A DNA stretch of 64,000 bases from a virus (Duplodnaviria > Caudoviricetes): positions 34,639 to 98,638 of the IMG/VR virus record IMGVR_UViG_3300032306_000439, one strand, 5' to 3'. This document shows positions 162-42,798 of the stretch, piece by piece (the stretch's first letter is position 1; each line of letters starts with the position of its first letter). The notes beneath the pieces were generated by a model. That model had not been told where the DNA came from and did not search any database. It was given only the letters and a program-made list of their open reading frames with translations. The translations under genes and the position numbers were made by a program.

Positions 162-3100
162 ATGTCGACCTCGGCAAAGACGCGCTCTTTCACGGGAAAG
201 CAGTTCAAAGAGGTATGGAGAGACATCAGCCTTGCTGACTGGCTGGTGGTTGTTTCTGAAGCGCGCCCTGACGGCGGTTGGAAGATCAAGGGAGATAGCA
301 TAGAGGGGCGTTGCCCCTTCCCAAATCACCAGGACTCTAGCCCCTCATTCAACATGAGGCCGGCTAAGGGTATAGCCAAGTGCTACGGCTGCCAGAAGGG
401 CAGCACAAATCCGGTCCACTTCGTTGCCGACATGCGGGGAACGAGCTGGTCAGACGCGCTCCTGTATCTAAGGAGGAAGTTCAACCTTAAGTCTCTCAGT
501 GCTAAGATGACTGACGAGCTTCAGGAACAAGAGCGTCACCTGATTATCAAGTCCTCTCTGGCCGACATGTTCGCCCGGGCGCTGGAGTTCTCTATCCAGG
601 CCTTAGAGAGTGACCCTAACGACCCTGCCTTCCAGTACGCCACTGCGTGCGTCAAGTACTTGGAGGCCCGCAAGATCCCCATGGACTTGACGGTCATAAA
701 GGCTCTGCCTATCGGCATCCTGCCTCCGTTGACCATTATGAAGGCGATGCTGGGCAGCAAGTACTCTATGTGCATGCCTGCCATAGAGAAGTACATAACT
801 GCTGACTATATAGGCAGCTTGGTCTTCGTCTACCACAACACGCCTTTCTCGGTCGGCGGTTTCAAGATAAGGGCAGACTTCCTGCGTAGCGAAGGGCGCA
901 GGGACATTATCTACGTCAAGAACCTAGACGAATCCCCCATCGGGCTCTTCGGGCTTGGTCACTACAAGGCTCTGCTTAGACCTTCTGGTGGTAGCGGCTC
1001 CGACGTGGTCATTGTTGAGGGCGAGTTTGACGCTCTCTCCAACATGGCTAACCAGGTAAAGAGCGGCGGGTCCTACGACGTGGTATTGGCTACTGGCGGT
1101 TCGTCAGAGCAGTACCTTGACCCTCTTCAGGACTTCGGTATCAGCAGGGCTCTGCTTGTTCCCGACGCGCCTGAGCATGGTGGAGACACCATTGCCAAAG
1201 GGTGGCTTACGTCCAACACCCTTCCGATGAAGCTCTTTACTTGGCCCGAAACCGTAAAGGCCAAGGACCCAGACGACGCCATCAAGACGTATGGGTTCGA
1301 TGTATGGAGCCAGCACCTTAACGAGATTGACCCGCAGTCAGGCGACAGGAAGCACTTTTGCTTCCCGCACATCTGGGCCATAGCTGCCCTCAAAGACCGT
1401 CTATCCAAGGTGGACCCTGACGACGTTCGTCGCATCAAGCAGGAGTGCGGAGAGGTTGGCCTGGCCCTAAGAGAGGCCACGGAGCAGAGAGCTTACATAA
1501 GCGCTGCTACTCTAGCTACAGGCCTCATGCCGTCAGACATCCTGTCCATGATTATTGGCAGGGACTCTACAGAGCAGGGGTTTGTCCAGAAGATAATCTT
1601 CGCGCTCAAGCAGGAGTACTCGTTCATAGGCAGCGAGCCGTCGAAGATGGGCGGCACTCGGGTGCAGTTCTGGCACAAAGAGAAGCGCATGATACGTAGC
1701 TGCAACGTAGCCAAGCCTTCGGATATGTTCAGCACGTTCAACGTAGACCTGGGCAACTTCATTGACTGGGTTAGGGACAACGTAGGTACGCCTGACTGGG
1801 CTCAGTACAAGCGGATTGGTAAGGCCACCATCCCGATGAGCCTCATTGAGCAGGAGGCGCTTCTAAAGAAGTACGTTGAGTTTGCTGTCACCGCGCTGCT
1901 TAAAGAGCTTCCTACACTCGACAACCTGACAGAGCTAAAGGCTGGCAGCCACTACTTGGAGCACCGAGTAAATGGAAAGAGCCACAGGCGCTGGGTTGTA
2001 GTTAACGGCAACGACGTCTACCTAGGTATACCTGGCCAGGGTCTAGTGGAGTGGCGCAGGCTTGATGGCCCGAAGTTTGGAGACTACTTCATCAATCTTT
2101 CTCGGCCCAGATGGTCTAACGAAATAAACGAGGCCAAGGACCTGATTGACGGTAACTCCATGGATATCAAGGATGCCTACAACTTCCTTGAGGACATCCT
2201 TAATCGAGGCTGGAAGTTCCAGAACCAGATCGAGGACTGCCAGTACCTGTCCGCCGCCATGATGCTCAACTCGGTGTGCGCCGCTCTGCCCCGGCAGCTA
2301 TACACTATTATTAACGGCACTCGAGGCTCAGGTAAGTCGAGCTTCTTGTCCCTGCTGACTAGCACTAACTACGAGATGAGAGTGCTTGAGGCGTCCTTCG
2401 GTATGGACAGCTACACCGAGGCAGGTTTCCGTAAGGAGATGAACAACTGCTCTCTCGGCGCGGTACTGGACGAGTTTGAGGACACTGGCGGAGACTCCCA
2501 CAGCAGGAACGTGCGGGAGATCCTCAAGGACATTAGAGGCCTTACGTCTAACCCGGAGTGCCGAATCCTCCGTGGCAACGCGGACAACAAGGAGTCCACG
2601 TCGTATACTCTGAAGTGCCAGATATGGGCAGCAGCCATCCAGTACCTGAGAGATGAGGCTGACATAAGCCGCTTCGTTCAGGTGCATACTGTCCTGGCAG
2701 AGGGGCACCCGCCGCCGCGCATCACGCTTGGGCAGAGGTACACGGAAGAAGACTTTACCAGGGCTCGCCGCACAATAACACTTGGGCTGTTCAGGCACGT
2801 CCCCGCCCTGCTAGACGAGGTTAAGAGCCTGCGTGACAAGTACTCGAACCCTGCAGTGATGCAGGAGCTGGCCAAGCTGGCGGGGACCGAGGTGCCCTCT
2901 AGATACCTGGACGGCGTAATCATACCCGCTGCCCTCATGTCTCTCTGTGGGCGTGACCCAGTAGAGTTCATTAACAGGTTTGTAGTCGCTAAGTCGGAAG
3001 GCCTTAAGAGAGTTGTTCAGTCAACCCACACTCACTCTCTGTTCGACCACCTCATGTCGGCACAGTTTGAGTTTAAGCCTACTTCTGACGCGGATGTCAG

Positions 3101-3476
3101 GTACACCAACCTGAGAAACTTGCTGAGCTCGTCTACCGACAGGCCCTTGATAAACAACACTAACACTGGGGCTAGGTACGCTGAGTTCATGTCTCCCGTC
3201 ACTGGAGAGCCTTGCCGGTGGCTTATAATCGTGTGGTCTGACGCAATGCTGAACCTGCTCAAGGGAGTAGGCAGCTACAGGTACGAGACTCCGTTGAGAC
3301 TTAAGCAGATGTCAGACTCAGACTCTTCCATGACTGTGCCTAACAGAGCGCTGAATCTAATACCTGGAGGCATAAAGAATTACCTGAGGATAGGCGTAAA
3401 TCTAAACGACGTGACGGTCTATGACCTCACCAGCTACATCGCACAGTGGGATAATCCAAAAACGGAACTAGTATGA
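162..3476 (+). CDS. DNA primase-helicase fusion (CHC2 Zn finger, TOPRIM, C-terminal P-loop ATPase)
   Basis: CPFPNH...CYGC zinc finger; VEGEFD and DPDD TOPRIM motifs; GTRGSGKS Walker A and VLDEFE Walker B; GGAGG RBS. Confidence 0.88.
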   Translation: MSTSAKTRSFTGKQFKEVWRDISLADWLVVVSEARPDGGWKIKGDSIEGRCPFPNHQDSSPSFNMRPAKGIAKCYGCQKGSTNPVHFVADMRGTSWSDALLYLRRKFNLKSLSAKMTDELQEQERHLIIKSSLADMFARALEFSIQALESDPNDPAFQYATACVKYLEARKIPMDLTVIKALPIGILPPLTIMKAMLGSKYSMCMPAIEKYITADYIGSLVFVYHNTPFSVGGFKIRADFLRSEGRRDIIYVKNLDESPIGLFGLGHYKALLRPSGGSGSDVVIVEGEFDALSNMANQVKSGGSYDVVLATGGSSEQYLDPLQDFGISRALLVPDAPEHGGDTIAKGWLTSNTLPMKLFTWPETVKAKDPDDAIKTYGFDVWSQHLNEIDPQSGDRKHFCFPHIWAIAALKDRLSKVDPDDVRRIKQECGEVGLALREATEQRAYISAATLATGLMPSDILSMIIGRDSTEQGFVQKIIFALKQEYSFIGSEPSKMGGTRVQFWHKEKRMIRSCNVAKPSDMFSTFNVDLGNFIDWVRDNVGTPDWAQYKRIGKATIPMSLIEQEALLKKYVEFAVTALLKELPTLDNLTELKAGSHYLEHRVNGKSHRRWVVVNGNDVYLGIPGQGLVEWRRLDGPKFGDYFINLSRPRWSNEINEAKDLIDGNSMDIKDAYNFLEDILNRGWKFQNQIEDCQYLSAAMMLNSVCAALPRQLYTIINGTRGSGKSSFLSLLTSTNYEMRVLEASFGMDSYTEAGFRKEMNNCSLGAVLDEFEDTGGDSHSRNVREILKDIRGLTSNPECRILRGNADNKESTSYTLKCQIWAAAIQYLRDEADISRFVQVHTVLAEGHPPPRITLGQRYTEEDFTRARRTITLGLFRHVPALLDEVKSLRDKYSNPAVMQELAKLAGTEVPSRYLDGVIIPAALMSLCGRDPVEFINRFVVAKSEGLKRVVQSTHTHSLFDHLMSAQFEFKPTSDADVRYTNLRNLLSSSTDRPLINNTNTGARYAEFMSPVTGEPCRWLIIVWSDAMLNLLKGVGSYRYETPLRLKQMSDSDSSMTVPNRALNLIPGGIKNYLRIGVNLNDVTVYDLTSYIAQWDNPKTELV

Positions 3477-6400
3477 AACCAGCCGCGTGCGCGACCTGTC
3501 CGCTGTATGGCAATGCGATGGCTGCCACAGTTAGCTCAGCTAACGTGTCTGTCTTGTTTCTCCTTGGGTCTCCGTATGAGTCGATGGGTACCAATAGAGC
3601 GTCCTTGACGTTCTCTGACAGGGCCAGCGACATTATCAAGAGGGCCGTAAGAGACCTGGCTACTGAGGAGCAGGCGTCGCTTCCTTTGTCACTCGTGCAT
3701 CCTATGGCAGAGCTGAGGAGAAGCATGAGCTTCTTGTATGCTGTGCAGTGCCTTGGGTGCGACAACACTAACAAGATAATCGAGACTTGCGCCGAGAAGT
3801 TCACCCATCACACTATCTACACCAGAAAGCCCTCTGTGATAGTGGCCATGGGCTCAGTGGCTCTTAAGAGCCTTGGGCTGCACGGAGGCATAAAGAACCT
3901 GCGTGGGTGCGTGGTCAAGGCTAAGATCTGCGGCGAAGAGTTCACCGTAGTGCCTACGATTAGCCCTCTCAATCTTCTTGGAGACGACGCAGGTCTATAC
4001 TCCATTATGAAGAATGACATAGCTAGAGCGGCTAAGGTAGCCTTCGAGACTGGGTACAGAGAGACCGATATCCCAGAGCTGACAAAGGGATACTCGTACC
4101 CTAACACTATCCCGGAGCTGGCTAAGCTTGCAGATGAGTACGCTAACTACTCATTCAATGGGCAGCCTCCTGAAAACTCAATGATGTCGCTCGACACGGA
4201 GACCAATACACTAAAGCCTTGGTCTTCCACCGCTCGAGTGATCATGCTGTCCGCTGCTGTGGCCCCAGGTAAATCCACGGCCATATTCCTAGAGCACGTA
4301 AAGGCGCCTTATGATTGGCGCAAAGCTCTGCCCTACGCTCTCAAGATCACCATGTCAGACAACCCGAAGGCATGGTGGAACTACAAGTTTGACTATCAGA
4401 TGTTCAAGTTCTGTCTCATGCCCAAGCTAAGTCAGCTGTGCAGCAGCCAGAAGTACAAGACAGACTTGGAGAGGATAGTAGGCAAGAGCCTAGAGGACAT
4501 ACTCAAAGTCAGCGGCATCAACAATACCAAGTGGGACGGACTCCTAGGTGAGCACATGCTAGACGAGGACAAGAAGGGCTACTACAGCTTGAAGACTGTG
4601 GTGTCCGACTACGTCCCAGAGTTCTCTGGCTATGAGGACAAGCTAAAAGAAGAGTTCAAGAAGGCGCAGGAGAACAAGCTCCTTAGCTCGGTCACGGAGT
4701 TCAAAGACCCCGTTGTCGTGCCAGTGTTTGGCATAGATGAAGAGGAACTTCCCTTCAAGATGCCGGCAGCGCCCAAGACCTGCTCGGAGTTGCTTGCTTA
4801 CGCAGAGGACAAGGTCGAGAAGATAGCTGAGCTGAGGAAGGCACAGGTAAAGAAGAACTACCCTAACCTTACCTCGGCTGAGATAGCCGCCAAGAAGCTT
4901 ATCCTAAAGACCAAAGAGAATAGGCTAGCCGAGTGGATAAAGAGGGAGAAGGCGGAGGTCAAGCACTACGAGAGGTTCCTGCAGGACTACGTCTCTGACG
5001 GTCGGCTCAGCTATGAGGAGAGCTCCGACAAGGAAGACGTTGTTACCTACGAGGACTTGGACCCCAACGTCCTTCAGCAGTACGCTGCAATCGACGCAGA
5101 CGTAACCTTCCAGATCTGCCGCAGACAGAGAATCAACGCCAACAAAGAGGACAAGAAGACCTCAGACCTTGGCGTCCAGAAGCTGCTAACCCTCATGGGC
5201 AGACACTACCTGCCGCTAACCGAGGCACTGTCTAACATGCAGTCCGAGGGCGTGTGGGTAGACAAGCAGTACCTGGAAGGCCTTCACGTAAGTATCAAGG
5301 AAAGCTCAGACAAGATAGAGCAGGAGATAAGAGAGACTCTTGCCCTAGACCTTGGCATAGACTCCTCCAAGGAGTCCTTGGTACTCAACAATCCAAAGAC
5401 GCTGGCTAATATCTTTGTGGCCTACTATGGCCTGCCTGTCATCAAGAAGACAGACAAGGGTTTCTCGTCAGTAGATGAGGACACTCTACAGGCCTATGCC
5501 GATATGGGCAACGATATAGCCAAGAAGGTTCTCGTATGGAGAAAGCTAGGAAAGGCTAAGTCGACATACGTGGATAGCTTCTTGGAGCTAAGCTCTGAGG
5601 ACGGAAAGATACACGGCAACATCCACATCAATGGCACGTCCACCGGACGCTGCAGCTCCTCTAATCCAAACCTGCAGAACACTCCTCACACGCTGGGCGA
5701 CACCAACATCAAGAAGTCGTTCATACCTACTCCCATTCATGAGGATTCTTGGTGGGAGTCGGAGAGCAACAGAGCTCAGGCGGAGGAGTTCGGCTGGATA
5801 AAGGGAGACCGCCTAGTATGGGCTGACCTAGACTTCTCTGGGGCTGAGGTCCGAGTTCTTACCAGGTATGCCCCTGACCAAAGCTTGATAGAGGCCCTAG
5901 TAGAAGGCCTGGATGTTCACTCGTGGATGACTTCAGAGATCCACGGCTTGGACTATGCCAAGGTAAACACAGAGAGGGCCGTAAAAGGCTCCACTATGGA
6001 GTCTCTTAGGTCGGACACTAAGAAGGTAGTGTTCGGCACTCTGTACGGAATCACTGCGCACGGCCTAAATGCTCGCATGGGGTTCACTGAGGAGAGAGCT
6101 CAGGAAATCATTGATAAGCTGATGCAGCGCTTTCCTGATATCCAAACCTACATCGAGAACACCAAGAGAGAAATCAGCGCCAAGGGATTTGTAGTTACTC
6201 CATACGGGAGGTTCAGGCGATTCCCCATGGCAAAGGTCGGCAGGTGGATGGAGGGTAGGAACCACCGTCAGGGTGTAAACTTCCTAATCCAGTCCTACTG
6301 CAGTGACATTGTGATGAGCTGCCTAAAGAACATAGCAGCTACCCGCAAAGAGGTAAGCCTAAGACTACTGCTGACGGTGCATGACTCGATCTGCTTCGAG

Positions 6401-6571
6401 ATGCCACTAAGGCTTGTTAAGGACTTGCCGGATTACTTGAGCAAGGCAGTAGAAGGGCACATCAAAACAGTGTTCCCTGATATGCCTGTAACCATGCCTT
6501 ACGACGTTACTGTCGGGTTCTCCTACGGAGAGACAAAGGACATTAAAAAGTTCGTCCAAAATATGGTATGA
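3473..6571 (+). CDS. polA: Family A DNA polymerase with N-terminal UDG-like domain and 3'-5' exonuclease
   Basis: SLDTET ExoI, YAAIDAD ExoIII, TGRCSSSNPNLQN, motif A DFSGAEVR, motif B RSDTKKVVFGTLYG, motif C TVHDS. N-terminal CATCPL and KPSVIVAMGSVA resemble family-4 UDG. Confidence 0.93.
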   Translation: MKPAACATCPLYGNAMAATVSSANVSVLFLLGSPYESMGTNRASLTFSDRASDIIKRAVRDLATEEQASLPLSLVHPMAELRRSMSFLYAVQCLGCDNTNKIIETCAEKFTHHTIYTRKPSVIVAMGSVALKSLGLHGGIKNLRGCVVKAKICGEEFTVVPTISPLNLLGDDAGLYSIMKNDIARAAKVAFETGYRETDIPELTKGYSYPNTIPELAKLADEYANYSFNGQPPENSMMSLDTETNTLKPWSSTARVIMLSAAVAPGKSTAIFLEHVKAPYDWRKALPYALKITMSDNPKAWWNYKFDYQMFKFCLMPKLSQLCSSQKYKTDLERIVGKSLEDILKVSGINNTKWDGLLGEHMLDEDKKGYYSLKTVVSDYVPEFSGYEDKLKEEFKKAQENKLLSSVTEFKDPVVVPVFGIDEEELPFKMPAAPKTCSELLAYAEDKVEKIAELRKAQVKKNYPNLTSAEIAAKKLILKTKENRLAEWIKREKAEVKHYERFLQDYVSDGRLSYEESSDKEDVVTYEDLDPNVLQQYAAIDADVTFQICRRQRINANKEDKKTSDLGVQKLLTLMGRHYLPLTEALSNMQSEGVWVDKQYLEGLHVSIKESSDKIEQEIRETLALDLGIDSSKESLVLNNPKTLANIFVAYYGLPVIKKTDKGFSSVDEDTLQAYADMGNDIAKKVLVWRKLGKAKSTYVDSFLELSSEDGKIHGNIHINGTSTGRCSSSNPNLQNTPHTLGDTNIKKSFIPTPIHEDSWWESESNRAQAEEFGWIKGDRLVWADLDFSGAEVRVLTRYAPDQSLIEALVEGLDVHSWMTSEIHGLDYAKVNTERAVKGSTMESLRSDTKKVVFGTLYGITAHGLNARMGFTEERAQEIIDKLMQRFPDIQTYIENTKREISAKGFVVTPYGRFRRFPMAKVGRWMEGRNHRQGVNFLIQSYCSDIVMSCLKNIAATRKEVSLRLLLTVHDSICFEMPLRLVKDLPDYLSKAVEGHIKTVFPDMPVTMPYDVTVGFSYGETKDIKKFVQNMV

Positions 6572-6579
6572 GTAAGCAC

Positions 6580-6723
6580 GCTGACATTTAGCAGATGAAC
6601 TAATTAGTTCAGAAGCAGTTACTGCTTCAGAGTAACGAACACCCCTAGCCGTCCTTCGGACGCCTAGGAGGTGAGCAACTTCTTCCACGAGACCGCCAGG
6701 CAGAGAAATTCGTGCTAGTCAGC
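6580..6723 (+). ncRNA. Retron msr-msd-like RNA, array unit 1
   Basis: GCTGAC(att)TAGCA 6580-6593 pairs with TGCTAGTCAGC 6713-6723; unpaired G6594 opposite G6712; hairpins 6612-6628 (G-TTA-C loop) and 6640-6673; AAATTCG 6706-6712. Confidence 0.65.
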
Positions 6724-6834
6724 AAACAAGAGTCGAATGCGGAGAAACTCCGCAGTGGTACTTTCGGCGCTACGCGCCGTAGCAACAAGCCCGTCCGCCG
6801 GAGGAGCTCGGACATGGGAAAATACGTGACTAGC
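6714..6834 (+). ncRNA. Retron msr-msd-like RNA, array unit 2
   Basis: GCTAGTCA 6714-6721 / TGACTAGC 6827-6834; G6722 opposite G6826; hairpins 6738-6754 (G-AAA-C), 6765-6779, 6790-6818; AAATACG 6820-6826. Confidence 0.72.
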
Positions 6835-6948
6835 TAGCATATAAGTTTAGGCTGGCGATACGCCAGCAACGTTATTGACTGACCGGGCTGCGCCCGTTCA
6901 GCCTCGAGATGACCAGGACATCCGGTCAAATATAAATTCGTAGCTAGT
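6829..6948 (+). ncRNA. Retron msr-msd-like RNA, array unit 3
   Basis: ACTAGCTA 6829-6836 / TAGCTAGT 6941-6948; G6837 opposite G6940; hairpins 6851-6867 (G-ATA-C), 6879-6901, 6910-6928; AAATTCG 6934-6940. Confidence 0.72.
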
Positions 6949-6952
6949 AGTT

Positions 6953-7102
6953 AGTGAAGACAGCAGATAAAAGTTAAAGGGCAAGCTACTTGCTCTACGT
7001 ACTTAACTACTCAGCAGGCCCTCGGGCCTTCGGCCCTCGGCTGAGTAGAATTAGGCGCTCACCAATCATCAGCTAATGTGGAATAAAATTCGTGCTGTCA
7101 CT
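6953..7102 (+). ncRNA. Retron msr-msd-like RNA, array unit 4
   Basis: GACAGCA 6959-6965 / TGCTGTC 7093-7099 (extendable by AGT/ACT); G6966 opposite G7092; hairpins 6978-6996 (G-CTA-C) and 7007-7048; AAATTCG 7086-7092. Confidence 0.65.
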
Positions 7103-8687
7103 TACCGTAGAACGTCAGGTTGTTAGACTTTATCCTACCAGCTATCCAAGCAAAGACTTGGGCATGTAGGGCATCGTCTGGGCAAGAGGGTTCATGCCTC
7201 CACACTCTCTTTCCCATGGCAGTTACTTCTTCGTAGACGTTCATAACGTCGTCGAAGGCAGGCATGGATATCTTCTGGGTTGGATACTCCATCTGGCCAT
7301 GCTTAACCTCCATGAGGAAGTTGTCTATCATGGTGGTTCTGTCAACTAAATAACGGTCCCGACCATTCCATCTAAACGGAGGAGCGTCTCCCTCGGAAGA
7401 CCCGTACTGCACGGCCCACACTCGGTTGTCGCCGTAAAGCTGGCGTAGCTGAGCGTTTGCCATGTGACCCTCTCCAGCATCGCAGACTATGAGAGATACT
7501 GAGTGCAAGGCCATCACTCGGGCTATCTCCTTGACCGTTACGATTGGGTTCTCTTGCTGGAATATTCGGTACCACAAGCATCTATACCTACCCCCAGCAT
7601 TGACACCCCAGATCCAAGCGGCTGTTCTGCTGTGCCCTGACGTACCACCTCCTGACCAGTCAACTCCTCCAACAACATGAACAGAGGAGTGCTTAATGGC
7701 CCCAGAAGGCTTCTCGTCAAAGGAGTAGTCAGCGCAGGATGACAACAGCTCGTCTAGTGCTATAAACCTAGCGCCTACAGAGTCAGAGATGCCGAGAACC
7801 TCGTTCTTAAACTGCGAGTCTCCGTACTTCTCTAGCTTGGTTCTTATTCTTCCCCAGCGCTCTGGATTGTCATTGTTCTGGGGTAAGATAATCTGTGGGA
7901 TATGGAATGACTTGATACGCTGATTTGCTGGGTCAGCGGGGTCAAGGTTCTCGGGTATAGGGTTCATGTCCACCCATACTCCGTTACGTGGATCCACATT
8001 CTTTTTACACTTCAGGCATACAGGTCCAGTGTTGCCTATGCCTGCATCAGAAATGTAAAAAGAATAGGAGTTACATCCAGAGCATTTGATGCACCACTCT
8101 CCCTGAGTAGACTGTCTCCAAAGAAACTCTATGGTGTTCTCCATGGTCTTTGGGGTGCCAGTGTAGGACATAAATCCGTAAGGAGAGTTAGCTGAGCATT
8201 CGGCAATGACAGGAATGACTTCGTCGTATAGAATGTCCTGTATCTCGTCGAAGTTAATCCTGTCTGCCGTATAGCCGCGAGCTCTGTCAGGATTGTCAGA
8301 GGCGTAGCTGAAGATAAGCTCAGAGCCATTCTTCAGGATCTTCAAGAATACGTTGTCCGGGGCTGACGGAGACAAGAAGTTGTCTCTGATCAACGGACTG
8401 TGCTGAATCATCTTAGCTATTCTCGTATTGGAGAAAGCGCTGGTCTGCTTCAGGGTCGGAGATATGTACATGGTCTTGAAGAAAGGAGTTGAAACAACAT
8501 CTGCTAGGGTAAAGGCCGCAGCAGATATAGACTTTCCGACCTGACGACCGCACTTCAGTAAGGTGTTCTTCCACATGCCCCTGTAGTAAGCATCGTACAT
8601 AGGGTAGTCGTGTAGGGAGAACTGGTTTCCGTCAAGAAATAGGACGCTCTCAGCGAGCGAGCGTCTGTCTGTAGAGATCAGGGTCAT
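7098..8687 (-). CDS. terL: Terminase large subunit (gpA-like, with Zn finger)
   Basis: CGRQVGKS Walker A, INFDEIQD Walker B, CSGC..CLKC, GVDW and PDDALHA nuclease motifs. Start reassigned to MTLISTD (8687) because the ORF-track extension to 9407 is the antisense of the AAA gene. Confidence 0.9.
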   Translation of the reverse strand: MTLISTDRRSLAESVLFLDGNQFSLHDYPMYDAYYRGMWKNTLLKCGRQVGKSISAAAFTLADVVSTPFFKTMYISPTLKQTSAFSNTRIAKMIQHSPLIRDNFLSPSAPDNVFLKILKNGSELIFSYASDNPDRARGYTADRINFDEIQDILYDEVIPVIAECSANSPYGFMSYTGTPKTMENTIEFLWRQSTQGEWCIKCSGCNSYSFYISDAGIGNTGPVCLKCKKNVDPRNGVWVDMNPIPENLDPADPANQRIKSFHIPQIILPQNNDNPERWGRIRTKLEKYGDSQFKNEVLGISDSVGARFIALDELLSSCADYSFDEKPSGAIKHSSVHVVGGVDWSGGGTSGHSRTAAWIWGVNAGGRYRCLWYRIFQQENPIVTVKEIARVMALHSVSLIVCDAGEGHMANAQLRQLYGDNRVWAVQYGSSEGDAPPFRWNGRDRYLVDRTTMIDNFLMEVKHGQMEYPTQKISMPAFDDVMNVYEEVTAMGKRVWRHEPSCPDDALHAQVFAWIAGRIKSNNLTFYGK

Positions 8688-8810
8688 ATGAGATCCGGAT
8701 GTTTGTGGCTGAGTATTCTTTTCATAATCATAGGCGTGGCTTTTCCAAAAGTTACGGCTGTGATTCTTGCCGGCGCATGGTACACCGTCATGCGCCTTTT
8801 GGGGTAGATA

Positions 8811-9983
8811 ATGTCTGAGAAGTTTTGGGAAGAGATCGGCGTGCCCTTGAGCAGCATCGGCCAGGCCCGGAAGATCGTGGAGCTGGCGTTCGCCAGCGGC
8901 ACGGTCCCCTGCTTGGTCGGCCACGCCGGCATCGGCAAGACCGAGACCTACAAGCAGATCGCCCGCGACCGGGGCTGGGGCTACGTGGCGCTCTACGCCC
9001 AGTTGTCCATGCCCGAGGACATCGCGGGCCTGCCCTTCCGAGCGGAGGACGGCAAGTCGTACGACTGCCTCATCGACAAGAGACTGCGGGAGAAGGTCGA
9101 GGCCAACCCGCAGGGCGGCATCCTGGTCTTCGAGGAGGTGAACCGCGCCTCCCGTGACACGGCCAGCGCCGTCTTCGCCTTCATGGACAACCGTGGAGCC
9201 GGCTCGTGGCGCCTGCCGGACACCTGGCACATCGCCATCGCGCAGAACCCTGCCGGTGGCGAATATGCGGTCAACGACCTCAACTCCGATCACGCCTTCA
9301 GGCGGCGTGTGACCTGGGTTGCGGTGCGTGAGGACGCCCGTGGCTGGATCGAGTACGGCGAGAAAACGGGCTTCGATAGCCGTGTGATCGAGTACGTCAA
9401 GGCCCACCCGGCCATGCTGCTCGACGCCACCACACGCACCTCCGGAAAGACCTACGCCAATCCGGCGGCGTGGGAGAAGGTGTCGAAGACCCTCACGGCT
9501 ATGAAGTCCCTGGGGATCAACGACCTTGAGCTGGCTCGGGCCAAGCTCAGCGGCGACATTGGCGAGGTTGCTGCGGACGGCTTCATCGAGTACGTCAAGA
9601 ACAGCGACAGCGTGATGTCCCCGCAGGAGGTCCTGTCCTACTACGCGGACAAGAACTCCGACATTCGTCGGAGGGTCAAGGGGAAGATCAGCGAAGGCGC
9701 ACTCGACAGGGTCAGCGCCCTGGCGTCCAGCGTTGTGCAGGAGCTTGTCCGTGGCAAGCCGGAGGCGTGCAAGGAGCTGGCCGCCAACATTGGCGAGTTC
9801 CTTCTCGACTTGCCGAAGGAGCTTACGGCAGCATTCTTCAGCGAGATGTCCTCGAGCAAGACGCCCGAGGACGCGCCGTACTTGGCCCGTGTCAACAAGT
9901 ACTGCGGTCTCAACGGCAGCTACCAGAAGGCCATCAAGGGCCTGTCGAAGTCCATCGAGGCTGTCGAGGACGAGATCAGCTGA
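8811..9983 (+). CDS. MoxR-family AAA+ ATPase
   Basis: GHAGIGKT Walker A, PEDIAGLP, VFEEVNRA Walker B, IAQNP sensor 1, AFRRR arginine finger; strongly GC3-rich. Confidence 0.88.
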   Translation: MSEKFWEEIGVPLSSIGQARKIVELAFASGTVPCLVGHAGIGKTETYKQIARDRGWGYVALYAQLSMPEDIAGLPFRAEDGKSYDCLIDKRLREKVEANPQGGILVFEEVNRASRDTASAVFAFMDNRGAGSWRLPDTWHIAIAQNPAGGEYAVNDLNSDHAFRRRVTWVAVREDARGWIEYGEKTGFDSRVIEYVKAHPAMLLDATTRTSGKTYANPAAWEKVSKTLTAMKSLGINDLELARAKLSGDIGEVAADGFIEYVKNSDSVMSPQEVLSYYADKNSDIRRRVKGKISEGALDRVSALASSVVQELVRGKPEACKELAANIGEFLLDLPKELTAAFFSEMSSSKTPEDAPYLARVNKYCGLNGSYQKAIKGLSKSIEAVEDEIS

Positions 9984-10046: not shown

Positions 10047-11855
10047 TTGTTAAAAGATCACTTTCCATTTAGCTCTCCTCCGTACAAGCATCAGCTAAAG
10101 GTGTTTAGTGCCATAGAGGAGTGTAGGAGGACTGGGCTAGGAAAGAAGTTCGTCCTCCTGCGAGGCCCAACGGGGTGCGGCAAGTCTGCCATCGCCATTA
10201 CCCTTGCTCTAGAGGCAGCCTCTCAGGGCAAGTCAACTCACGTACTAGCGTCTCATAGGTTCCTGCAGTCACAATACCTGAATGACTTTGAGCAGTTTGG
10301 GCTGAGGAATCTGTGGGGTAAGAGGAACTATAACTGCAGGCTAGCCGAGGTACACGGAGTAACCCTAAACGGAAGGACTCCTGACTGCGGCGAGTGCATG
10401 GCCTACAGGAGAGATCTGTCCAGAAAGATATCTAAGCTCTCCGGCAAGGACTTCATAGCCTCGCACTGCTCTTCAAAAGAGCCGGGGGATCTGTGCCACT
10501 ACACCAAGGCTCGGATGTCTGCGTCTACCTCCAGGATAGCCCTAACTAATTACAACAGCTTTCTGGCCCACACCTTCTACACGGAGACGCTCGGTAAGAG
10601 AGACCTGCTGATAGTAGACGAGGCCCATCTTCTGGCAGACCGTTTAGCAGGCTTCCTTACCACAGAGGTACCCCTGCTGGACGAGTGGGTGGAGGGACAC
10701 AGCAACTCCAAGAACCCCAAGGATCACTTGGCCTGGCTTAACACTGTAGTTAAGAACCAGCTACTGGCTACTGTTGAAGGAATGGCTAAGGCTATTAATC
10801 ATGGCATATCCATACACATGGATGACATGTTTAACTCCTTAGTAGATAACAACCCCATGTATGCAGAGATAGCTGCATCAGTACCCAATGGCAAAGACTC
10901 AGAAGAGGTAGACTTTGTAAAGCTGTACCAGCTCTACAAAAAGATAGAGAAGCTGCTGGAATCAGCCACCCTTAACCCAAATTACTGGGTAGTAGACATC
11001 GTAGACAAGAACGTTCCGGGCGTAGGGGTAGAAAAAGTACTGGAGTATAAGCCTGTTAAGGTAGGAAAGATGGCTGAGACCTACCTGTTCAAGTACGCTG
11101 ACGAGGTAGTCCTCATGTCAGCGACTATGAACACGGGACCTTTCCTATCTGATCTAGGCATTGAGTCGGATGACATAAAGGCATTCATAGACCTGCCTTC
11201 TGTGTTTCCTCTGTCAACTAGACCGATAATAAACATACCAGTTGGCAGTATGGCTAGGTCTAACAGAGATGAGACTATCGTAAAGATAGCTCGTCAGCTA
11301 GAGGACTTGATACTAAACAAGCACCCAGGTGAGAAGGGAGTTATCCATCTCCACAGCTTCAAGAACGGTCATGACCTGTACAAGCTTCTTAGTTACAAGG
11401 CCCGAAGCAAGATCATCTGGCACTTAACAAGCGACAACGTTCGTATAGAAGACCTAACGGAGAAGTTCTTCAAGTCAAAGGACAGCTGGCTAGCCAGCCC
11501 GTCTATCGTTGAGGGCTTAGATGGCAAAGATGACAGAGTAAGAGTTCAGGCTCTTATAAAGGCGCCCTACCCCAACATAGGTAGCGCTCAGGTCAGTGCC
11601 AGAAGAAACCTCAAGGACGGCCATGAGTGGTACCTAGCACAAGCGGCCAACAGCCTAGTGCAGGCGTACGGTAGAGGTACACGTCACGCTAACGACTATA
11701 GCGTCATGTACGTCCTGGACTCTGAGGTGTCCAAGGCCGTAGCTAGCGCGGCAGGCGTAATACCTAAGTGGTTTATGGACGCCTGGAATATATCGCAGCC
11801 AAGTAACTGGACTCTACAGGACGGTAGATACGTCAATAGTCCAGCGACACGTTAG
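10047..11855 (+). CDS. DinG/XPD-like SF2 DNA helicase
   Basis: GPTGCGKS, GKRNYNC plus further Cys (Fe-S-like), IVDEAH, MSAT, EGLD, QAYGRGTRHANDY. Confidence 0.88.
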   Translation: MLKDHFPFSSPPYKHQLKVFSAIEECRRTGLGKKFVLLRGPTGCGKSAIAITLALEAASQGKSTHVLASHRFLQSQYLNDFEQFGLRNLWGKRNYNCRLAEVHGVTLNGRTPDCGECMAYRRDLSRKISKLSGKDFIASHCSSKEPGDLCHYTKARMSASTSRIALTNYNSFLAHTFYTETLGKRDLLIVDEAHLLADRLAGFLTTEVPLLDEWVEGHSNSKNPKDHLAWLNTVVKNQLLATVEGMAKAINHGISIHMDDMFNSLVDNNPMYAEIAASVPNGKDSEEVDFVKLYQLYKKIEKLLESATLNPNYWVVDIVDKNVPGVGVEKVLEYKPVKVGKMAETYLFKYADEVVLMSATMNTGPFLSDLGIESDDIKAFIDLPSVFPLSTRPIINIPVGSMARSNRDETIVKIARQLEDLILNKHPGEKGVIHLHSFKNGHDLYKLLSYKARSKIIWHLTSDNVRIEDLTEKFFKSKDSWLASPSIVEGLDGKDDRVRVQALIKAPYPNIGSAQVSARRNLKDGHEWYLAQAANSLVQAYGRGTRHANDYSVMYVLDSEVSKAVASAAGVIPKWFMDAWNISQPSNWTLQDGRYVNSPATR

Positions 11856-12513
11856 ATCCCTCAAGCTGGGACTTGAGAAGGTCCTTACGTGTCTTAAGGT
11901 AGAGCGCGGCCTCCCTAAGTATGCGGGCCTGCACAGACGCTGCGTCGTCTTCGTCGTAGTAGTCTACCTTAGTAGACGTAAGGACCTTGACCAAGTCTTC
12001 CTTGAGCTTGGTAAAGTCATGCGTCTTGGACGTTATCATGTCCAAGTGCTTTGACGCAAAGGTCAGCTCTGGTGGCACCATGACCAGTCCGTTGTGCGCT
12101 AGAACGCAAGCAACGTACATAGCCGTGTCGTCTCCGTATTCCTCTGGGCCTGGGCGACCGTCGTAGTGATTAGCTACGTACCTAGCCTCAGTCGTACCCC
12201 ACACAAGCTCGCCAACAGAGCACTCATTGACACTCTCTGGTAGAGCTATGCGCCCGTTGAGGGACTCCATTAGGTTGTTGTAAACCTTGTAGTCCCACAG
12301 GTGGCTGGGGCACAAGCGTATAGCCGTGACTGCTAGCAGTCTGTCTCTAGCTTCTTCGTCTGGTAGACATCCTATCTCATCCAGATACGTAAGAAGAGTG
12401 TCAAACTCCCAGGCTGCGTGCGCTCCGTTGGTGAGCGCATCACACGCTAGGGACAAAGAGATTCCAAAAGACTCTGGGTCTTTTAGTATCGCTATGGCTT
12501 TGTCACGCAGCAC
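11833..12513 (-). CDS. Hypothetical protein (probably late/virion)
   Basis: 226-aa ORF directly abutting the upstream minus-strand gene; no recognisable motif. Confidence 0.6.
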   Translation of the reverse strand: MLRDKAIAILKDPESFGISLSLACDALTNGAHAAWEFDTLLTYLDEIGCLPDEEARDRLLAVTAIRLCPSHLWDYKVYNNLMESLNGRIALPESVNECSVGELVWGTTEARYVANHYDGRPGPEEYGDDTAMYVACVLAHNGLVMVPPELTFASKHLDMITSKTHDFTKLKEDLVKVLTSTKVDYYDEDDAASVQARILREAALYLKTRKDLLKSQLEGSNVSLDY

Positions 12514-13526: not shown

Positions 13527-14933
13527 ATGAAGTCCACATTGCCAGAAATTCTGGCGTTCCTGCAGACTGGGCGCGGAGGGGGTAACCCGTTCTTCCCCAC
13601 CATCATCAACGCGCTCAAGAAGATTGAGACGCCGGGGATGGGGACGGCTGGCGTTTCGGTTACGCCCGAGGGAAAGATGGTGCTGCGGTACGACCCGCAG
13701 CTGGTCGAGGACCTGGAGTTCCGTGAGCTCCAGTTGGTGATGATTCACGAGGTTTACCACCTCGCTCTGAACCACATCCCCCGACTGATGCGACTGATCG
13801 AGGGTCATGAGGGACTGGAGCTCAAGCGCATCATGCGCGTGGCTAACATCGCCATGGACTACGCCGTGAATTCTCTCATGGTCCAGGCCAAAGAGGCCAC
13901 GGTTCAGGACTTCAAGACCCTTGGTCCTGACATGGGAGACGGTAAGCACAAGTACGCTGGCGTCTACCCCACGGATGCCGACTTGCCTCCTTTCCAGACG
14001 TTCGAGTGGTACTTCCTGCGCATCATGGAGAATCTTCCCCAGTTCGTGAAGGTGATCGGTGTTGTGGGAAAGGGGGAAGGAGAAGGGTCCGGAGGCGGCG
14101 GGTGCGGAGAGAATGAGGGAGAGAATGGTGAGGGCAGCGGAGACAAGACCCTCAGGGCCCTTGAAGACTACATCAAGAGGAACAGCCCCACGTCAAACCT
14201 TGACGACCTCGAAGAGGCCCTCAAGGAGATGACTGCCGACCAGATCTCCGACCTGGCTAACCAGGTGGAGCGAGAGGCAAAGAAGGCTGTTGGCAAGGCT
14301 GTTGAGGCTGCCAGGAAGAGCCGTGGTACCGTCCCAGGCAATCTGCAGCAGTCCGTCGACGAGCTCCTCAAGGACAAGGAGATCCCCTGGCAGCGCCTGT
14401 TGTCGGCCTGGATCAGCAACGCTCTTCGCAAGGATCGAGAGCGAAGCAAGAGGCGTCCGAAGCGCCGCTCCATGGACGACGCTCGGATGTCTGCCTACCC
14501 AGGTAAGATCGGCCACGACCAGTACACTCTGGTCTACGCCATCGACACCTCGGGCTCCATGGGAGGAGAGGAGTTGGCGGAGGTCATGTCGGAGCTCCAG
14601 AACCTGCAGAAGGCGCAGCGCGGGATCAAGATCCACGTCCTGGAGGCGGACACGGAGATCCACCACGAGTACGAGGTTGGGTTCTCCGACAAGCCCAGCT
14701 TCGACATCCACGGTCGAGGCGGCACGGACTTCAACTGCGTGTTCCGCAGGCTGAAGGACGGTCTGAAGGCTGACGCCTTGATCTACGCTACGGACGGCTA
14801 CGCCCCGATGCCTGATCTCTCCCTCCGGCTCAACATTCCGGTCATCTGGGCAATCACGAGCCGTGGTCGTAGCCCCTGCACCGACACCGACCAATATGGC
14901 CGTACCCTGCTGATCAAGGGCAAGGACCAGTGA
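13527..14933 (+). CDS. Metallopeptidase-vWA protein (DUF2201-like), MoxR partner
   Basis: HEVYH zincin, ANIAMDYAVN, Gly/Glu linker, IDTSGSM MIDAS, GRGGTDF, YATDGY. Confidence 0.88.
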   Translation: MKSTLPEILAFLQTGRGGGNPFFPTIINALKKIETPGMGTAGVSVTPEGKMVLRYDPQLVEDLEFRELQLVMIHEVYHLALNHIPRLMRLIEGHEGLELKRIMRVANIAMDYAVNSLMVQAKEATVQDFKTLGPDMGDGKHKYAGVYPTDADLPPFQTFEWYFLRIMENLPQFVKVIGVVGKGEGEGSGGGGCGENEGENGEGSGDKTLRALEDYIKRNSPTSNLDDLEEALKEMTADQISDLANQVEREAKKAVGKAVEAARKSRGTVPGNLQQSVDELLKDKEIPWQRLLSAWISNALRKDRERSKRRPKRRSMDDARMSAYPGKIGHDQYTLVYAIDTSGSMGGEELAEVMSELQNLQKAQRGIKIHVLEADTEIHHEYEVGFSDKPSFDIHGRGGTDFNCVFRRLKDGLKADALIYATDGYAPMPDLSLRLNIPVIWAITSRGRSPCTDTDQYGRTLLIKGKDQ

Positions 14934-15616
14934 AGGTACTCAGCCTAAAGGCGGCGTTCTCGTTCACCCGTGGCTACATCTTCGACAAGATGTACTTTGT
15001 TAAGAAAGGAGACGAGGAAGTCATCCCTAGGATGTTCAGTACATGCCTGCAGATGAGAATCTCTGGGCCGAACATGGACTCTCTTAGGGCGATGATGGTC
15101 AACGAGATTCTCAATGAGAGGGGAGAGGTAGTAGCGCAAGAGTTCAAAGTGACGAGGGATCAGGCCCCCGAGTCACTGCCCCTTGTCCAAGAGTTCAAGA
15201 AAGATCTCACGGACAGGAACATGAACGACTGGTGGTGCGTAGTACCGATCCTCCTCAGGAGTGTAGCGTCGTCCCCCGACGAAGAAGGAGAGGAGGACGA
15301 GCTGAAGACTAGGTCCCGGCTGATGTACTTGAGAAACAAGAGCTGGGATCGAGTCCGTACATCTGAGATGCGAAGAAAGTCTCTGGGCAAGCCGGACATC
15401 CCGGACACGGCTATTCTGCATGTGGCCGGAGATCAGATCTCTCCCCCGTGCTTGGCGTGTCCTCACCTCGACAGGCACGTAGCTGGGGGATGCACTCTAG
15501 GCATGACTTCGTGCCTCACGTCCATCGGCATCGTCCATAAGAGCCAGTTCGTGAAGAACTTGGAGAAGTACGGGAAGGAGGTTGCCGGTGCCGGGATTCA
15601 AGAAGACAACCCTTAG
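14930..15616 (+). CDS. Cys-motif hypothetical protein upstream of the RT
   Basis: GTGA coupling to the vWA gene; PCLACPH...GGCTLGMTSC. Confidence 0.7.
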   Translation: MKVLSLKAAFSFTRGYIFDKMYFVKKGDEEVIPRMFSTCLQMRISGPNMDSLRAMMVNEILNERGEVVAQEFKVTRDQAPESLPLVQEFKKDLTDRNMNDWWCVVPILLRSVASSPDEEGEEDELKTRSRLMYLRNKSWDRVRTSEMRRKSLGKPDIPDTAILHVAGDQISPPCLACPHLDRHVAGGCTLGMTSCLTSIGIVHKSQFVKNLEKYGKEVAGAGIQEDNP

Positions 15617-16688
15617 CGTAATGGAGGTCGGCCAGGTACCGGACGGAATGCCACTGGCGTTTGACGACAACACGCTGGCGTTCCATATCGGCATCAAGAC
15701 CCGGACCCTGTGGCTTATGGTTATGGGCTCGGGGTTGCAGGCAGGCCAGAAAGGGTCGGCCTACCGTTTGGGTGAAATACCCAAAAGAGGCAGGGCTGGG
15801 CAGAGGGGCGAAAAGCGTAAGCTACACATACCCTCTGACCGTCTAAAGGCGGTGCAAAGAGCTCTGTGCGCCGCGTTCGTTCAGCCACTGCCGGTGGGAC
15901 CACAGGTCAAGGCGTACGAGCCGGGCTCGTCCGTTGTGGGAACCGCACAGGACATGTCTGGAGGGGGCGTGCTCATCTCCATGGACCTGAAGAACTTCTT
16001 CGGGTCCATACGAATGAGCTGGGTCAGGTCCTTCTTCATGTCCAAGGGATACAACAGGCAAGTAGCGAGCCTCTTGGCTCGCCTTTGCTGTTGCCGAGAT
16101 GAGGGAGTTAACTTCCTCCCGCAGGGTACTCCTGTAAGCCCCGGGCTTGCTAATCGCATTGCCCAAGACAGAGTCGACGGGGCTGTACTGGACATCTGCA
16201 AGGAGTATGGATGGTCTTACGTCCGCTATTCCGACAACGTCTACTTCAGCCACCCTGAGGTCGTACCAGTCGACAAGACTAACGAGTTCAAGGATAAGGT
16301 TGCGGCAGCGTTCAGGAGGGGCGGCTGGGCGACACACAAGATCCTAGTGTTGCCCAAGTGGCGCAGGCAAAAGGTCCTGGGCCTGACTGTGAACGACAAG
16401 CCCAACGTTCAGAGGGAGCAGTACGCAGCGCTTCGGGCGCTGATACACAACTGCATGGTGGAGGGCTTTGAGTCTCAGGTGGAGATGTCTAAAGCCAAGA
16501 TCAACCCGAGTATAAATTGCGCTGAAGACTTGATAGCGCACATCCGTGGCAAGCTCAGCTACTTCGGTCAAGTGCTGGAGGCTAGCCGTCAAGAAAGGCT
16601 GTCCCAGGAGTTTGAGACAGCCTTGGAAACTGAAAGGCTCTCCCTTAGACAGAAATGGGAAGAGCAGGACAAGGAGGACTCCCTTTGA
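15582..16688 (+). CDS. Retron-type reverse transcriptase (likely start GTG 15588)
   Basis: IPK..R.L..P..RLK.VQ, MDLKNFFGSI, LPQGTPVSPGLAN, YVRYSDN catalytic loop, QKVLGLTVN (retron VTG/region Y), LRALIHNC thumb; AAGGAGG RBS before 15588. Confidence 0.9.
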   Translation: MPVPGFKKTTLSVMEVGQVPDGMPLAFDDNTLAFHIGIKTRTLWLMVMGSGLQAGQKGSAYRLGEIPKRGRAGQRGEKRKLHIPSDRLKAVQRALCAAFVQPLPVGPQVKAYEPGSSVVGTAQDMSGGGVLISMDLKNFFGSIRMSWVRSFFMSKGYNRQVASLLARLCCCRDEGVNFLPQGTPVSPGLANRIAQDRVDGAVLDICKEYGWSYVRYSDNVYFSHPEVVPVDKTNEFKDKVAAAFRRGGWATHKILVLPKWRRQKVLGLTVNDKPNVQREQYAALRALIHNCMVEGFESQVEMSKAKINPSINCAEDLIAHIRGKLSYFGQVLEASRQERLSQEFETALETERLSLRQKWEEQDKEDSL

Positions 16689-18100
16689 TGAGGGCGGTAT
16701 TAGCACAGGCAATGGGCGGTATCTGGTCCCACTTTCCTAGGTGGAGGGGGAACAGCTCAACCCTGCTTCCCGGTATCCTGATTCAGATGCCGGACGAGAA
16801 CATCAAGAATCACGAGCAGGTCTTTGTCTCCCTGAGGAACAAGATCGAAGCGGACCTTTTTGTAATCCACCGTTGGGCTAAGGTCTTCATGACCCCCTTT
16901 GCCATCCCAGGCCCAGGGGCGTGGCTGAAGCACAGCTACGACTACGTGGTTACTGGAGAAGGCTTGGTAACAGAGCCTCTAGCAGATGTGTATCGCAACT
17001 GCATGCAGTTCGAGAAGTTCGCTAGCCCTCCGTGTCTGTCCTGTAAGTGGGACACCTGCCTACAAGAATCAGGCAGCCCACTGGTAGTCAAGGACATGGG
17101 TATGTCATTGACGCTAGGGTGGGGGGACAACTCTAAGTACGAGTTCGGTCCCTACGACTCGTACAACACCTGGGTAGCAGGCGCAACAGCTAGAACAGCT
17201 CACGTACCGGTACCGAGAAGCCCGATGCAGCTGGCTGTTAGCGAGGAGGCCAGCGCCCAGATGGTTAGCAAGTTGAAGGAAGCCATCCAGGGTACGGAAG
17301 GCCTAAGCCTCGTCCCAAACAAGTGGGCGCTGTCGGACAAGGTTGGGGTGTCGGAGAATAAGATCTACCCAATCCAGGATATCTCGCTCGAGGAAAGTGA
17401 CCTGAAGAAGCGCAAGGCTGAGCTCAGTGCTAACAGCAGTAGGGCAGCGGCCACGAGAAAGGTCCGCAAGGATGTGTGCTCCCAATGCGTCATCTCGGGT
17501 ACCTGCAATAAGTACCAACCCACAAAATGCTCCGGAGCTCTGACCCTAGAAGACCTACAGGACAGGGTCAAAGACAGGGTAAAGAAAACTTTCGGGGAGG
17601 TTCCCACAAAGGATACGCCCTGGATAAAGGCGACTCTGGCGGCGTCCGGGCATTACATAGAGGGCCGAATCGGTACACGGAAAGGCAGGGCAACCACGTA
17701 TACAATCTGCGGCGTGTTCCCGACTCTGGCTATGGGGGGTCCAGGGGACCTGGTTGTCAGGCTGAGGAGGAAGCGCTATGCGCTCCATCAGTTCATCCAC
17801 GTAGACCTCAAGAAAGACTGGTCAACGTGGAAGCCTGAGGAGCTCCAGAAGATCTTGGATCTGCCTCACAAGGAGATCACGGACGACCAGGCAGTCTGGC
17901 TGGCGTACCTAATGTCCCTTAGCGGATGGCGTAGACCCTATGGATCCTGGGACGAGCCGTGGAGGTTCTGGGTCAAGGATGGCAAGGTGATTATGCGCAC
18001 CCACCATTATCGGCACTACGAAATAGAGAACTGGGAGGACTGCAACATTCCTGGAGTCCGGCAGTTCCGTACTAACAAAACCACATGGGGGAAGGAGTAG
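16688..18100 (+). CDS. Cys-rich hypothetical protein downstream of the RT (candidate partner/effector)
   Basis: TGATG overlap with the RT stop; PCLSCKWDTC and CSQCVISGTC..C clusters. Confidence 0.7.
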   Translation: MRAVLAQAMGGIWSHFPRWRGNSSTLLPGILIQMPDENIKNHEQVFVSLRNKIEADLFVIHRWAKVFMTPFAIPGPGAWLKHSYDYVVTGEGLVTEPLADVYRNCMQFEKFASPPCLSCKWDTCLQESGSPLVVKDMGMSLTLGWGDNSKYEFGPYDSYNTWVAGATARTAHVPVPRSPMQLAVSEEASAQMVSKLKEAIQGTEGLSLVPNKWALSDKVGVSENKIYPIQDISLEESDLKKRKAELSANSSRAAATRKVRKDVCSQCVISGTCNKYQPTKCSGALTLEDLQDRVKDRVKKTFGEVPTKDTPWIKATLAASGHYIEGRIGTRKGRATTYTICGVFPTLAMGGPGDLVVRLRRKRYALHQFIHVDLKKDWSTWKPEELQKILDLPHKEITDDQAVWLAYLMSLSGWRRPYGSWDEPWRFWVKDGKVIMRTHHYRHYEIENWEDCNIPGVRQFRTNKTTWGKE

Positions 18101-42623: not shown

Positions 42624-42798
42624 AGGGCGCTAGTGGTAGCTAAAAGAAAAATGGCGGAGATACTTCGCCATAGTGCAAGAACCGGAGCACGCCAGACCGC
42701 TCCTACCCGTAGTCCGTCTCGATATTCTGCCGTCTACGCCGTCAGAACTTCTAGCCGGACAACTGTCGGGACGTCCGTACCACTAGCGCCCTTTTTTT
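42624..42798 (+). ncRNA. Solo retron msr-msd-like RNA (unit 5)
   Basis: Perfect 15-bp inverted repeat AGGGCGCTAGTGGTA 42624-42638 / TACCACTAGCGCCCT 42778-42792; TAGC context with G42639 opposite G42777; hairpin 42651-42671 with G-ATA-C loop, hairpin 42684-42703, long imperfect stem 42706-42770; T7 tail. Confidence 0.78.

Follow-up and report, generated by a model that had tools for sequence, protein, structure and literature searches.

Shared closing arms in a tandem array of candidate reverse transcriptase templates between the DNA polymerase and terminase genes of an uncultured phage

Four tandem RNA units occupy the 526-nt gap (6572-7097) between the converging DNA polymerase and terminase genes of an uncultured phage, and at two of their junctions neighboring units draw on the same bases for their closing arms. 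Most likely, the retron-type reverse transcriptase that the phage itself encodes uses the four units as templates, and it would do so in trans. The sharing of arms we read, with moderate confidence, as competition among tightly packed units that arose by duplication across palindromic arms.

Organization of the Array

The window, by which we mean the whole stretch of 64,000 nucleotides that was analyzed, is part of a 98.6-kb virus record and contains ten tRNA genes. A primase-helicase gene (162-3476) is followed by the gene for a family A DNA polymerase (3473-6571), on which the gene for the large terminase (7098-9407, minus strand) converges. A gathering-threshold search of the whole window against Rfam returned the tRNA array alone, and a permissive search of 6000-7700 also matched only the tRNA array, with neither msr nor any other family at the units described here; blastn of the array region against 50,697 phage records gave zero matches.

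All four units follow the same layout, which consists, in order, of a 5' arm, a G, a C or A, a triloop hairpin, more hairpins, the motif AAAT(T/A)C-G and a 3' arm. The closing stems are 7-11 bp long, with the G directly after the 5' arm and AAATWC-G directly before the 3' arm, and the first hairpin of each unit (7-8 bp, with a G-NNA-C triloop) begins 12-18 nt past the arm G. Unit 1 (6580-6723, plus strand) has a divided 5' arm (6580-6585 and 6589-6593) followed by G6594, hairpins at 6596-6611, 6612-6628 (G-UUA-C triloop) and 6644-6668, AAATTC-G at 6706-6712 and a 3' arm (6713-6723) that pairs with both segments of the 5' arm, giving a stem of 6 + 5 bp with a 3-nt bulge. Unit 2 (6714-6834, plus strand) runs from the 5' arm GCTAGTCA (6714-6721) and G6722 through hairpins at 6738-6754 (G-AAA-C), 6765-6779 and ∼6790-6818 to AAATAC-G (6820-6826) and the 3' arm TGACTAGC (6827-6834). 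Unit 3 (6829-6948, plus strand) has the 5' arm ACTAGCTA (6829-6836), G6837, hairpins at 6851-6867 (G-AUA-C), 6879-6901 and 6911-6927, AAATTC-G (6934-6940) and the 3' arm TAGCTAGT (6941-6948). A repeat finder gave 8/8 complementarity for the arms of unit 2 and for those of unit 3. Unit 4, as redefined here (6959-7099, plus strand), has the 5' arm GACAGCA (6959-6965), G6966, a hairpin at 6978-6996 (G-CUA-C), a long hairpin at 7007-7048, AAATTC-G (7086-7092) and the 3' arm TGCTGTC (7093-7099), which overlaps the terminase stop codon.

Two other assignments in the unit 4 region were rejected. Placing the unit at 6946-7011, on the inverted repeat 6946-6953/7004-7011, gave a modeled probability of 0.006, against 0.84 for 6959-7099, which has the AAATTC-G signature. 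The hairpin at 7007-7048 was considered as an intrinsic terminator; it lacks a U run and belongs to unit 4 as its long internal hairpin. Both AAATTCGTGCT and AGCAGAT(G/A)AA are present in unit 1 and again in unit 4, which is its paralogue. The second hairpin of every unit carries a C-UNC-G triloop (UUC in 6644-6668, UAC in 6765-6779, UGC in 6879-6901 and UUC in 7024-7036), the complement of which is the very stable DNA triloop C-GNA-G, and this would fit a cDNA hairpin product.

Just upstream of unit 1, a promoter-like extended -10 element, TGGTATGAG (6564-6572, plus strand), assigned from the consensus, overlaps the DNA polymerase stop codon and would place the start of the array transcript at ∼6578-6581. 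Of 21 related loci, 14 have the motif TG(G/T)TAT(A/G)AG at the equivalent position and another 6 have a variant, TGTG(T/G)CANAAG, so that one or the other is found just 5' of the first unit in 20/21 loci, at or just past the polymerase stop codon. Many of the loci also have a conserved (C)GCAAA(A/T)A ∼20 nt 5' of this motif. The repeated AAATTCGTGCTAG was tried as a general phage promoter and ruled out, as it is not enriched elsewhere in the window. Within the array hairpins G-U pairs outnumber A-C appositions by 7 to 1, compared with 2 to 3 in the upstream coding DNA, and it is from this bias and from the upstream promoter-like motif that we assign the array to the plus strand. Separate internal promoters, which the sequence-only reading had named as the circumstance under which its proposal would fail, are unlikely for units 2 and 3, because their arms overlap and only a single conserved promoter-like motif stands before each array.

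A fifth, solitary unit lies at 42624-42792 (plus strand). It has a 15-bp closing stem (AGGGCGCTAGTGGTA/TACCACTAGCGCCCT), TA-G-CTA after the 5' arm and the hairpin GGCGGAG-ATA-CTTCGCC, with a G-AUA-C triloop. With a promoter-like TTGCAT...TAATAT upstream and a terminator-like run of seven T residues directly after it, this unit looks like an independently transcribed one, 36 kb from the array. When the signature detector was run on both strands of the whole 98.6-kb record, the array and the solitary unit were the only clean matches, with about nine weak matches besides. Nested inverted repeats are also present at 11878-11988, where 13 bp (AAGGTCCTTACGT/ACGTAAGGACCTT) surround 9 bp (TAAGGTAGA/TCTACCTTA); they sit where the helicase ORF (10047-11855) and a minus-strand ORF (11833-12513) end, and they do not have the hairpin signature of the units.

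The gap might instead hold a DNA-level element unrelated to the reverse transcriptase, such as a replication origin, a packaging site or a recombination hotspot made of hairpins or cruciforms. Such an element would suit the position between replication and packaging genes, the dense triloop hairpins and the folding of the gap, which is much better than that of shuffled sequence on both strands (z of -4.2 and -5.7). However, closing stems that covary over 100-140 nt fit an RNA or single-strand fold and not sites in duplex DNA, and the plus strand bias toward G-U over A-C, the conserved promoter-like motif upstream, the occurrence elsewhere of a solitary unit with promoter-like and terminator-like flanks of its own, and an arm-G...G-arm layout like that of retron Ec86 all argue in the same direction, making a DNA-level element very improbable.

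Shared Arms at the Junctions

Junction 1 (6713-6723, plus strand) is the 3' arm of unit 1 and wholly encloses the 5' arm of unit 2 (6714-6721) together with G6722. At junction 2 (6827-6837, plus strand), the 5' arm of unit 3 (6829-6836, followed by G6837) begins within the 3' arm of unit 2 (6827-6834), and the two have the 6 nt of 6829-6834 in common. These overlaps had been claimed by the sequence-only reading, and all of the complementarities that it described are present where it placed them, as are the self-complementary junction cores, CTAG, CTAGCTAG and TAGCTAGT. It had further held that unit 4 is free of overlap with unit 3, which remains true of unit 4 as redefined, because this unit starts 10 nt past unit 3 and has no bases in common with it. 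One arm is able to serve two units because the arms are built on CTAG palindromes, and since the same bases are needed by both stems, neighbors that share an arm cannot both close on one RNA molecule, as had been supposed.

In dinucleotide shuffles, perfect 8-mer pairs at such spacing occurred 0.95 times on average, with two or more in 24% of shuffles, and two perfect 8-mers by themselves are not unusual. A pair with overlapping arms appeared in only 0.7% of 5000 shuffles. Three of the four AAATWCG sites directly precede a 7-mer that has its reverse complement, with a G added, 60-200 nt upstream (chance of ∼0.002 per site); the fourth site pairs with a bulge. Given that the bases flanking CTAG also match between partners (TCA/TGA and CTA/TAG), and that the 5' arm of unit 1 has no CTAG yet pairs over 11 bp, the pairing is more than a repeated palindrome.

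Related Arrays

Searches with the polymerase and the reverse transcriptase yielded ∼40 related loci on viral and metagenome contigs from IMG/VR and JGI. Every one of these loci has a terminase gene converging on that of the polymerase, and the gap between the two holds from one to nine or more units. The polymerases are only 27-62% identical. In a curated set of 69 units, the arms have 46 different 7-mers, all of them matched by a partner; the arms of the units thus covary across the whole family. The 69 units have a common signature, in which the 5' arm and its G are followed after 8-19 nt by a hairpin with a G-NNA-C triloop, and the 3' arm is preceded by a motif specific to the clade and a G. 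These units were chosen for pairing, and the real control is therefore the specificity of the detector over the whole record. An alignment of 13 units with MAFFT brought the 5' arm with its G and the first hairpin into register, but not the 3' halves.

The most distant relative (L017:8794-10229), with a polymerase 27% identical and a reverse transcriptase with YSDD, has arms of 8-12 bp, the G/G layout and G-AAA-C hairpins; its units are widely spaced, and part of its gap may be coding. In a related 117-kb phage (L026, G011:C1:40768-43830, minus strand), the polymerase homologue is read through one in-frame TAG, which may stem from an error in sequencing, from a gene that is broken or from reassignment of the stop codon. 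L049 carries two arrays (L049:5560-6640 and L049:340-970), the second ∼3.4 kb upstream of the L049 reverse transcriptase. For some 5' arms in this locus (e.g. 6017-6024 and 6377-6385), there is a choice of two or three complementary 3' arms downstream, which, as far as the pairing indicates, would be another form of mutually exclusive closure.

We surveyed 41 adjacent junctions from 11 non-redundant arrays. The arms are shared at 7, abut at a distance of 0-2 nt at 12, are 3-10 nt apart at 16 and more than 10 nt apart at the remaining 6. All seven shared junctions lie on CTAG-type arms, for example TACTAGTA in L012/L033/L034/L050 and the offset cores in the present array, and sharing is seen in at least three clades (the present one, L012/L033/L034/L050 and L007-L009/L041). 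Shared junctions that are non-palindromic occur in L033 and L050. In L033 the junction AACTAGTA has the partners GCTAGTT upstream and TACTAGTT downstream, and in L050 the junction TGCTAGTA has TACTAGTA upstream and TACTAGC downstream; because these junctions match their partners on either side, both pairings seem to be maintained. The nearest multi-unit relative (L043, ∼62% identical in the C terminus of the polymerase and in the terminase) has non-CTAG arms that lie 1 and 3 nt apart, none of them shared. The arrays of L012 and L033 each mix shared, abutting and spaced junctions. Relatives with a single unit also exist (L003, L023, L028, L029 and L046), which shows that the present clade expanded from one unit.

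The prominence of CTAG raises an alternative in which the junctions are chiefly a motif read by a protein, and the stems, rather than being helices that form, are a side effect of the repetition of a palindromic site. The protein would be the reverse transcriptase complex, a nuclease dividing the array into units or a DNA-binding protein that acts as a dimer. In the L007-L009/L041 clade each internal junction is a single shared G-(A/G)CTAG(T/G)-G hexamer, nearly invariant and of only 5-6 bp, which is more like a motif than a covarying stem, and there is an over-representation of TA-G-CT around the G that follows the 5' arm. However, many arms that are free of CTAG have perfect complements (GCTTAATA, TTGGGATA, TTGAATCA, GCACAAAC and TCCACTTC), arms can be as long as 14-15 bp, as in L004 and in the solitary unit, and G-U pairs are present within arms, none of which favors a protein-read motif, and the same is true of the matching CTAG flanks and the CTAG-free 5' arm of unit 1 in the window. 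We consider this alternative quite unlikely.

The Reverse Transcriptase

The retron-type reverse transcriptase gene (15582-16688, plus strand) lies in a conserved operon (13527-18100), and its start is 8.5 kb from the end of the array at 7099. A phmmer search of the PDB matched the protein to the reverse transcriptases of retrons Ec86 (E = 2.9e-24) and Ec67 (E = 8e-19), and the top 25 matches in PADLOC were all retron reverse transcriptase models, the best being RT_XIII (E = 5e-52). The active-site box, as read in homologues, is YSDN and not YxDD. We found no close reverse transcriptase in cultured phages.

The enzyme is present in 7/7 related virus records that are long enough to reach the gene, each of which also has an array, and 18 loci seeded with the reverse transcriptase show the same gene order. 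Because this co-occurrence lies within a single syntenic phage family, in which no phage without the enzyme or without the array turned up as a control, it suggests rather than establishes the link between enzyme and array. Units beside the reverse transcriptase were detected neither in the window nor in most relatives. The operon neighbors of the reverse transcriptase are conserved with it in relatives: the 228-aa ORF upstream is found in three relatives and the 481-aa ORF downstream in two, both weakly, and a 468-aa protein upstream is more widely conserved than either. PADLOC gave no match for the five operon neighbors tested and no recognized effector. Upstream of the window the phage has a gene with an RNase H domain (G000:C1:29514-29741), whose product could mature cDNA products; RNase H is an ordinary and common gene of phage replication.

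Folding of the Array Transcript

The transcript was folded over 6576-7105, and the values given are mean pair probabilities from equilibrium nearest-neighbor estimates without proteins, to be read as tendencies. In the full transcript, the closing stem of unit 1 has a probability of 0.71, that of unit 2 0.05, that of unit 3 as annotated 0.02 and that of unit 4 0.84; when unit 2 is folded alone, its closing stem reaches 0.51. In the model, unit 3 closes mostly through a longer pairing of ∼17 bp that is shifted by 4 nt (6827-6849 with 6933-6953), a change of register that the tandem CTAGs permit. This longer pairing was not adopted as the stem of unit 3: one substitution in L001 breaks it, and it does not have the family signature. 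The ensembles in which unit 1 is closed and those in which unit 2 is closed are only ∼1.7 kcal/mol apart, and the predicted populations are therefore soft.

According to the sequence-only reading, one transcript could close either units 1 and 3 or unit 2. The two states do exclude each other, but the equilibrium model does not treat them evenly, favoring closure of units 1 and 3 (with unit 4) and leaving unit 2 closed in only ∼5%. Folding of the growing transcript, the check that had been suggested, inclines the same way: while unit 2 is still incomplete, unit 1 has reached a closure of 0.95, and the closure of unit 2 stays at or below 0.19 throughout. The further expectation that disrupting the 5' arm of unit 1 should raise the product of unit 2 was not borne out by the model, as the modeled closure of unit 2 was 0.017 when that arm was blocked, because the junction of units 2 and 3 stays paired with the unit 3/4 side. 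Blocking 6938-6956 instead gave a modeled closure of 0.40 for unit 2.

These results bear on whether the sharing is a designed switch or a sequential relay, as had been proposed, selected to order or apportion the use of the units. Units 1 and 3 would then be copied first, removal of the template by RNase H would turn their stems into short intermolecular duplexes that dissociate, and unit 2, with both junctions released, would close and be copied later. The exclusion itself is physically certain, the early closure of unit 1 in the growing transcript, with unit 2 at 0.19 at most, would give such an order, and an RNase H domain is encoded in the genome. The presence of sharing in at least three clades could reflect selection for it and not mere tolerance, and the partners matched on both sides of the non-palindromic shared junctions are consistent with this. 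However, most related junctions have separate arms and L043 shares none, showing that the family works without sharing and that exclusion is not a conserved design; the mixture of junction types within L012 and L033 resembles drift in packing more than a fixed circuit, and RNase H is commonplace in phage replication. A switch or relay is, on balance, unlikely.

We therefore return to competition among tightly packed units as the preferred explanation. One plus strand transcript (6572-7099) would carry four tandem template-type non-coding RNA units of the retron/UG27 kind, diverse in sequence and conserved in structure, each closed by a basal helix with a G on either side of the helix end. As a palindromic arm is at once a direct and an inverted repeat, duplicating a unit across arms that are CTAG palindromes would leave a single shared copy, and an origin by duplication fits the mix of shared, abutting and spaced junctions in single arrays. 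On any one RNA, units 1, 3 and 4 would close and unit 2 would stay mostly open, to be used less, or only once its neighbors have been opened or processed. Three steps in this account we infer: that transcription starts from the promoter-like motif, that the reverse transcriptase uses the units and that the sharing came about through packing and duplication.

Discussion

The copying of small-RNA arrays into DNA hairpins by phage reverse transcriptases has been described only recently (UG27). The related arrangement in the present phage differs in that the enzyme is of the retron type, that the units have the arm-G...G-arm organization of retrons and that the array, placed between the genes for polymerase and terminase, is at a distance from the enzyme. 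Shared arms predict unequal or ordered yields from neighboring units, which would amount to a design rule for compact template arrays, and the array may be regarded as a naturally occurring parallel to the retron arrays that have been engineered for multiplex genome editing. Were the relay true, one transcript would give rise in the course of infection to different cDNA hairpins, one after another in a set order; if the sharing reflects only tight packing, it still shows how an array can grow by duplication across palindromic arms. In the literature searched, which included parts of the UG27 preprint, we found no description of shared basal arms.

Retron non-coding RNAs are predicted from the a1/a2 repeat, from a priming G close to the start and from the presence of several hairpins (bioRxiv 10.1101/2024.01.25.577267). 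With the msr-msd of Ec86 as a control (L060:1502-1670), our detector returned TGCGCACCCTTA-G-CGA ... TTCTGAC-G-TAAGGGTGCGCA. Like the phage units, retron Ec86/Eco1 ends in an a1/a2 inverted repeat, with a G right after a1 (the priming G in retrons) and a G right before a2, and the two are also alike in the A-U pair at the stem end, the A-G-C and C-G-U contexts and the several inner hairpins. The phage reverse transcriptase, as in retrons, is of the retron type. The arms of the array units are shorter (7-11 bp) than the 12 bp of Ec86, and a rule of thumb asks for more than 8 bp, a length exceeded only in unit 1, with its bulged stem of 11 bp, and in the solitary unit, with 15 bp; units 2 and 3 have 8 bp and unit 4 has 7 bp. 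Known retrons, which serve in bacterial defense, consist of one msr-msd adjoining the reverse transcriptase (within ∼500 bp of it) and an effector that completes a tripartite defense or toxin-antitoxin system, and they produce branched msDNA, with a 2'-5' link at the priming G. The phage has four tandem units and one solitary unit, at least 8.5 kb from the reverse transcriptase, and no effector recognized by PADLOC among the operon neighbors tested.

In multitrons, tandem msr-msd units on one transcript provide one reverse transcriptase with several independent templates (bioRxiv 10.1101/2023.07.17.549397). Given that these engineered arrays work, a retron reverse transcriptase can use arrayed units. 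Multitrons are synthetic, were built for genome editing and have complete arms for each unit, whereas the phage array occurs in nature and has shared arms at two junctions.

The closest published system is that of the UG27 (class 2 UG/Abi) reverse transcriptases of phages, with their variable non-coding RNA arrays and two conserved accessory proteins, a small and a large one. UG27 was defined in 2022 (Mestre et al. 2022, bioRxiv 10.1101/2021.12.02.470933 / PMC9226505), and the sections of a later preprint on which we draw here describe a phage reverse transcriptase with a variable array, in which the hairpin at the center of every unit gives rise to a 50-100-nt cDNA hairpin from a conserved AUC (Minerva preprint, bioRxiv 10.64898/2026.09.22.753630). 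Most published UG27 systems come from gut phages. The published UG27 motif, AUCNNNNNNNUANAG (AUCN7UANAG), was absent from 22/22 arrays searched. Three gut-phage contigs found by tblastn (H1, H5 and H6) were tried as a UG27 reference and set aside, since two of them carry YADD reverse transcriptase fusions and none has the motif. The cDNA of UG27 is described in those sections as starting at AUC; the present phage clade has AAAU(U/A)C-G or AAAUC-G directly before the 3' arm. Whereas UG27 arrays lie inside the reverse transcriptase locus, the array is found between polA and terL in every relative examined here, and the phage enzyme scores as retron-type in PADLOC and against the PDB. The two systems are alike in having a phage-encoded YSD(D/N) reverse transcriptase flanked by conserved, putatively accessory genes, tandem units of ∼100-170 nt that keep their structure while diverging in sequence, a number of units that varies among relatives and extra units that may be placed in other intergenic regions. 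Combining these traits with a retron-type enzyme and retron-like unit ends, the array family would tie retrons and UG27-like arrays together.
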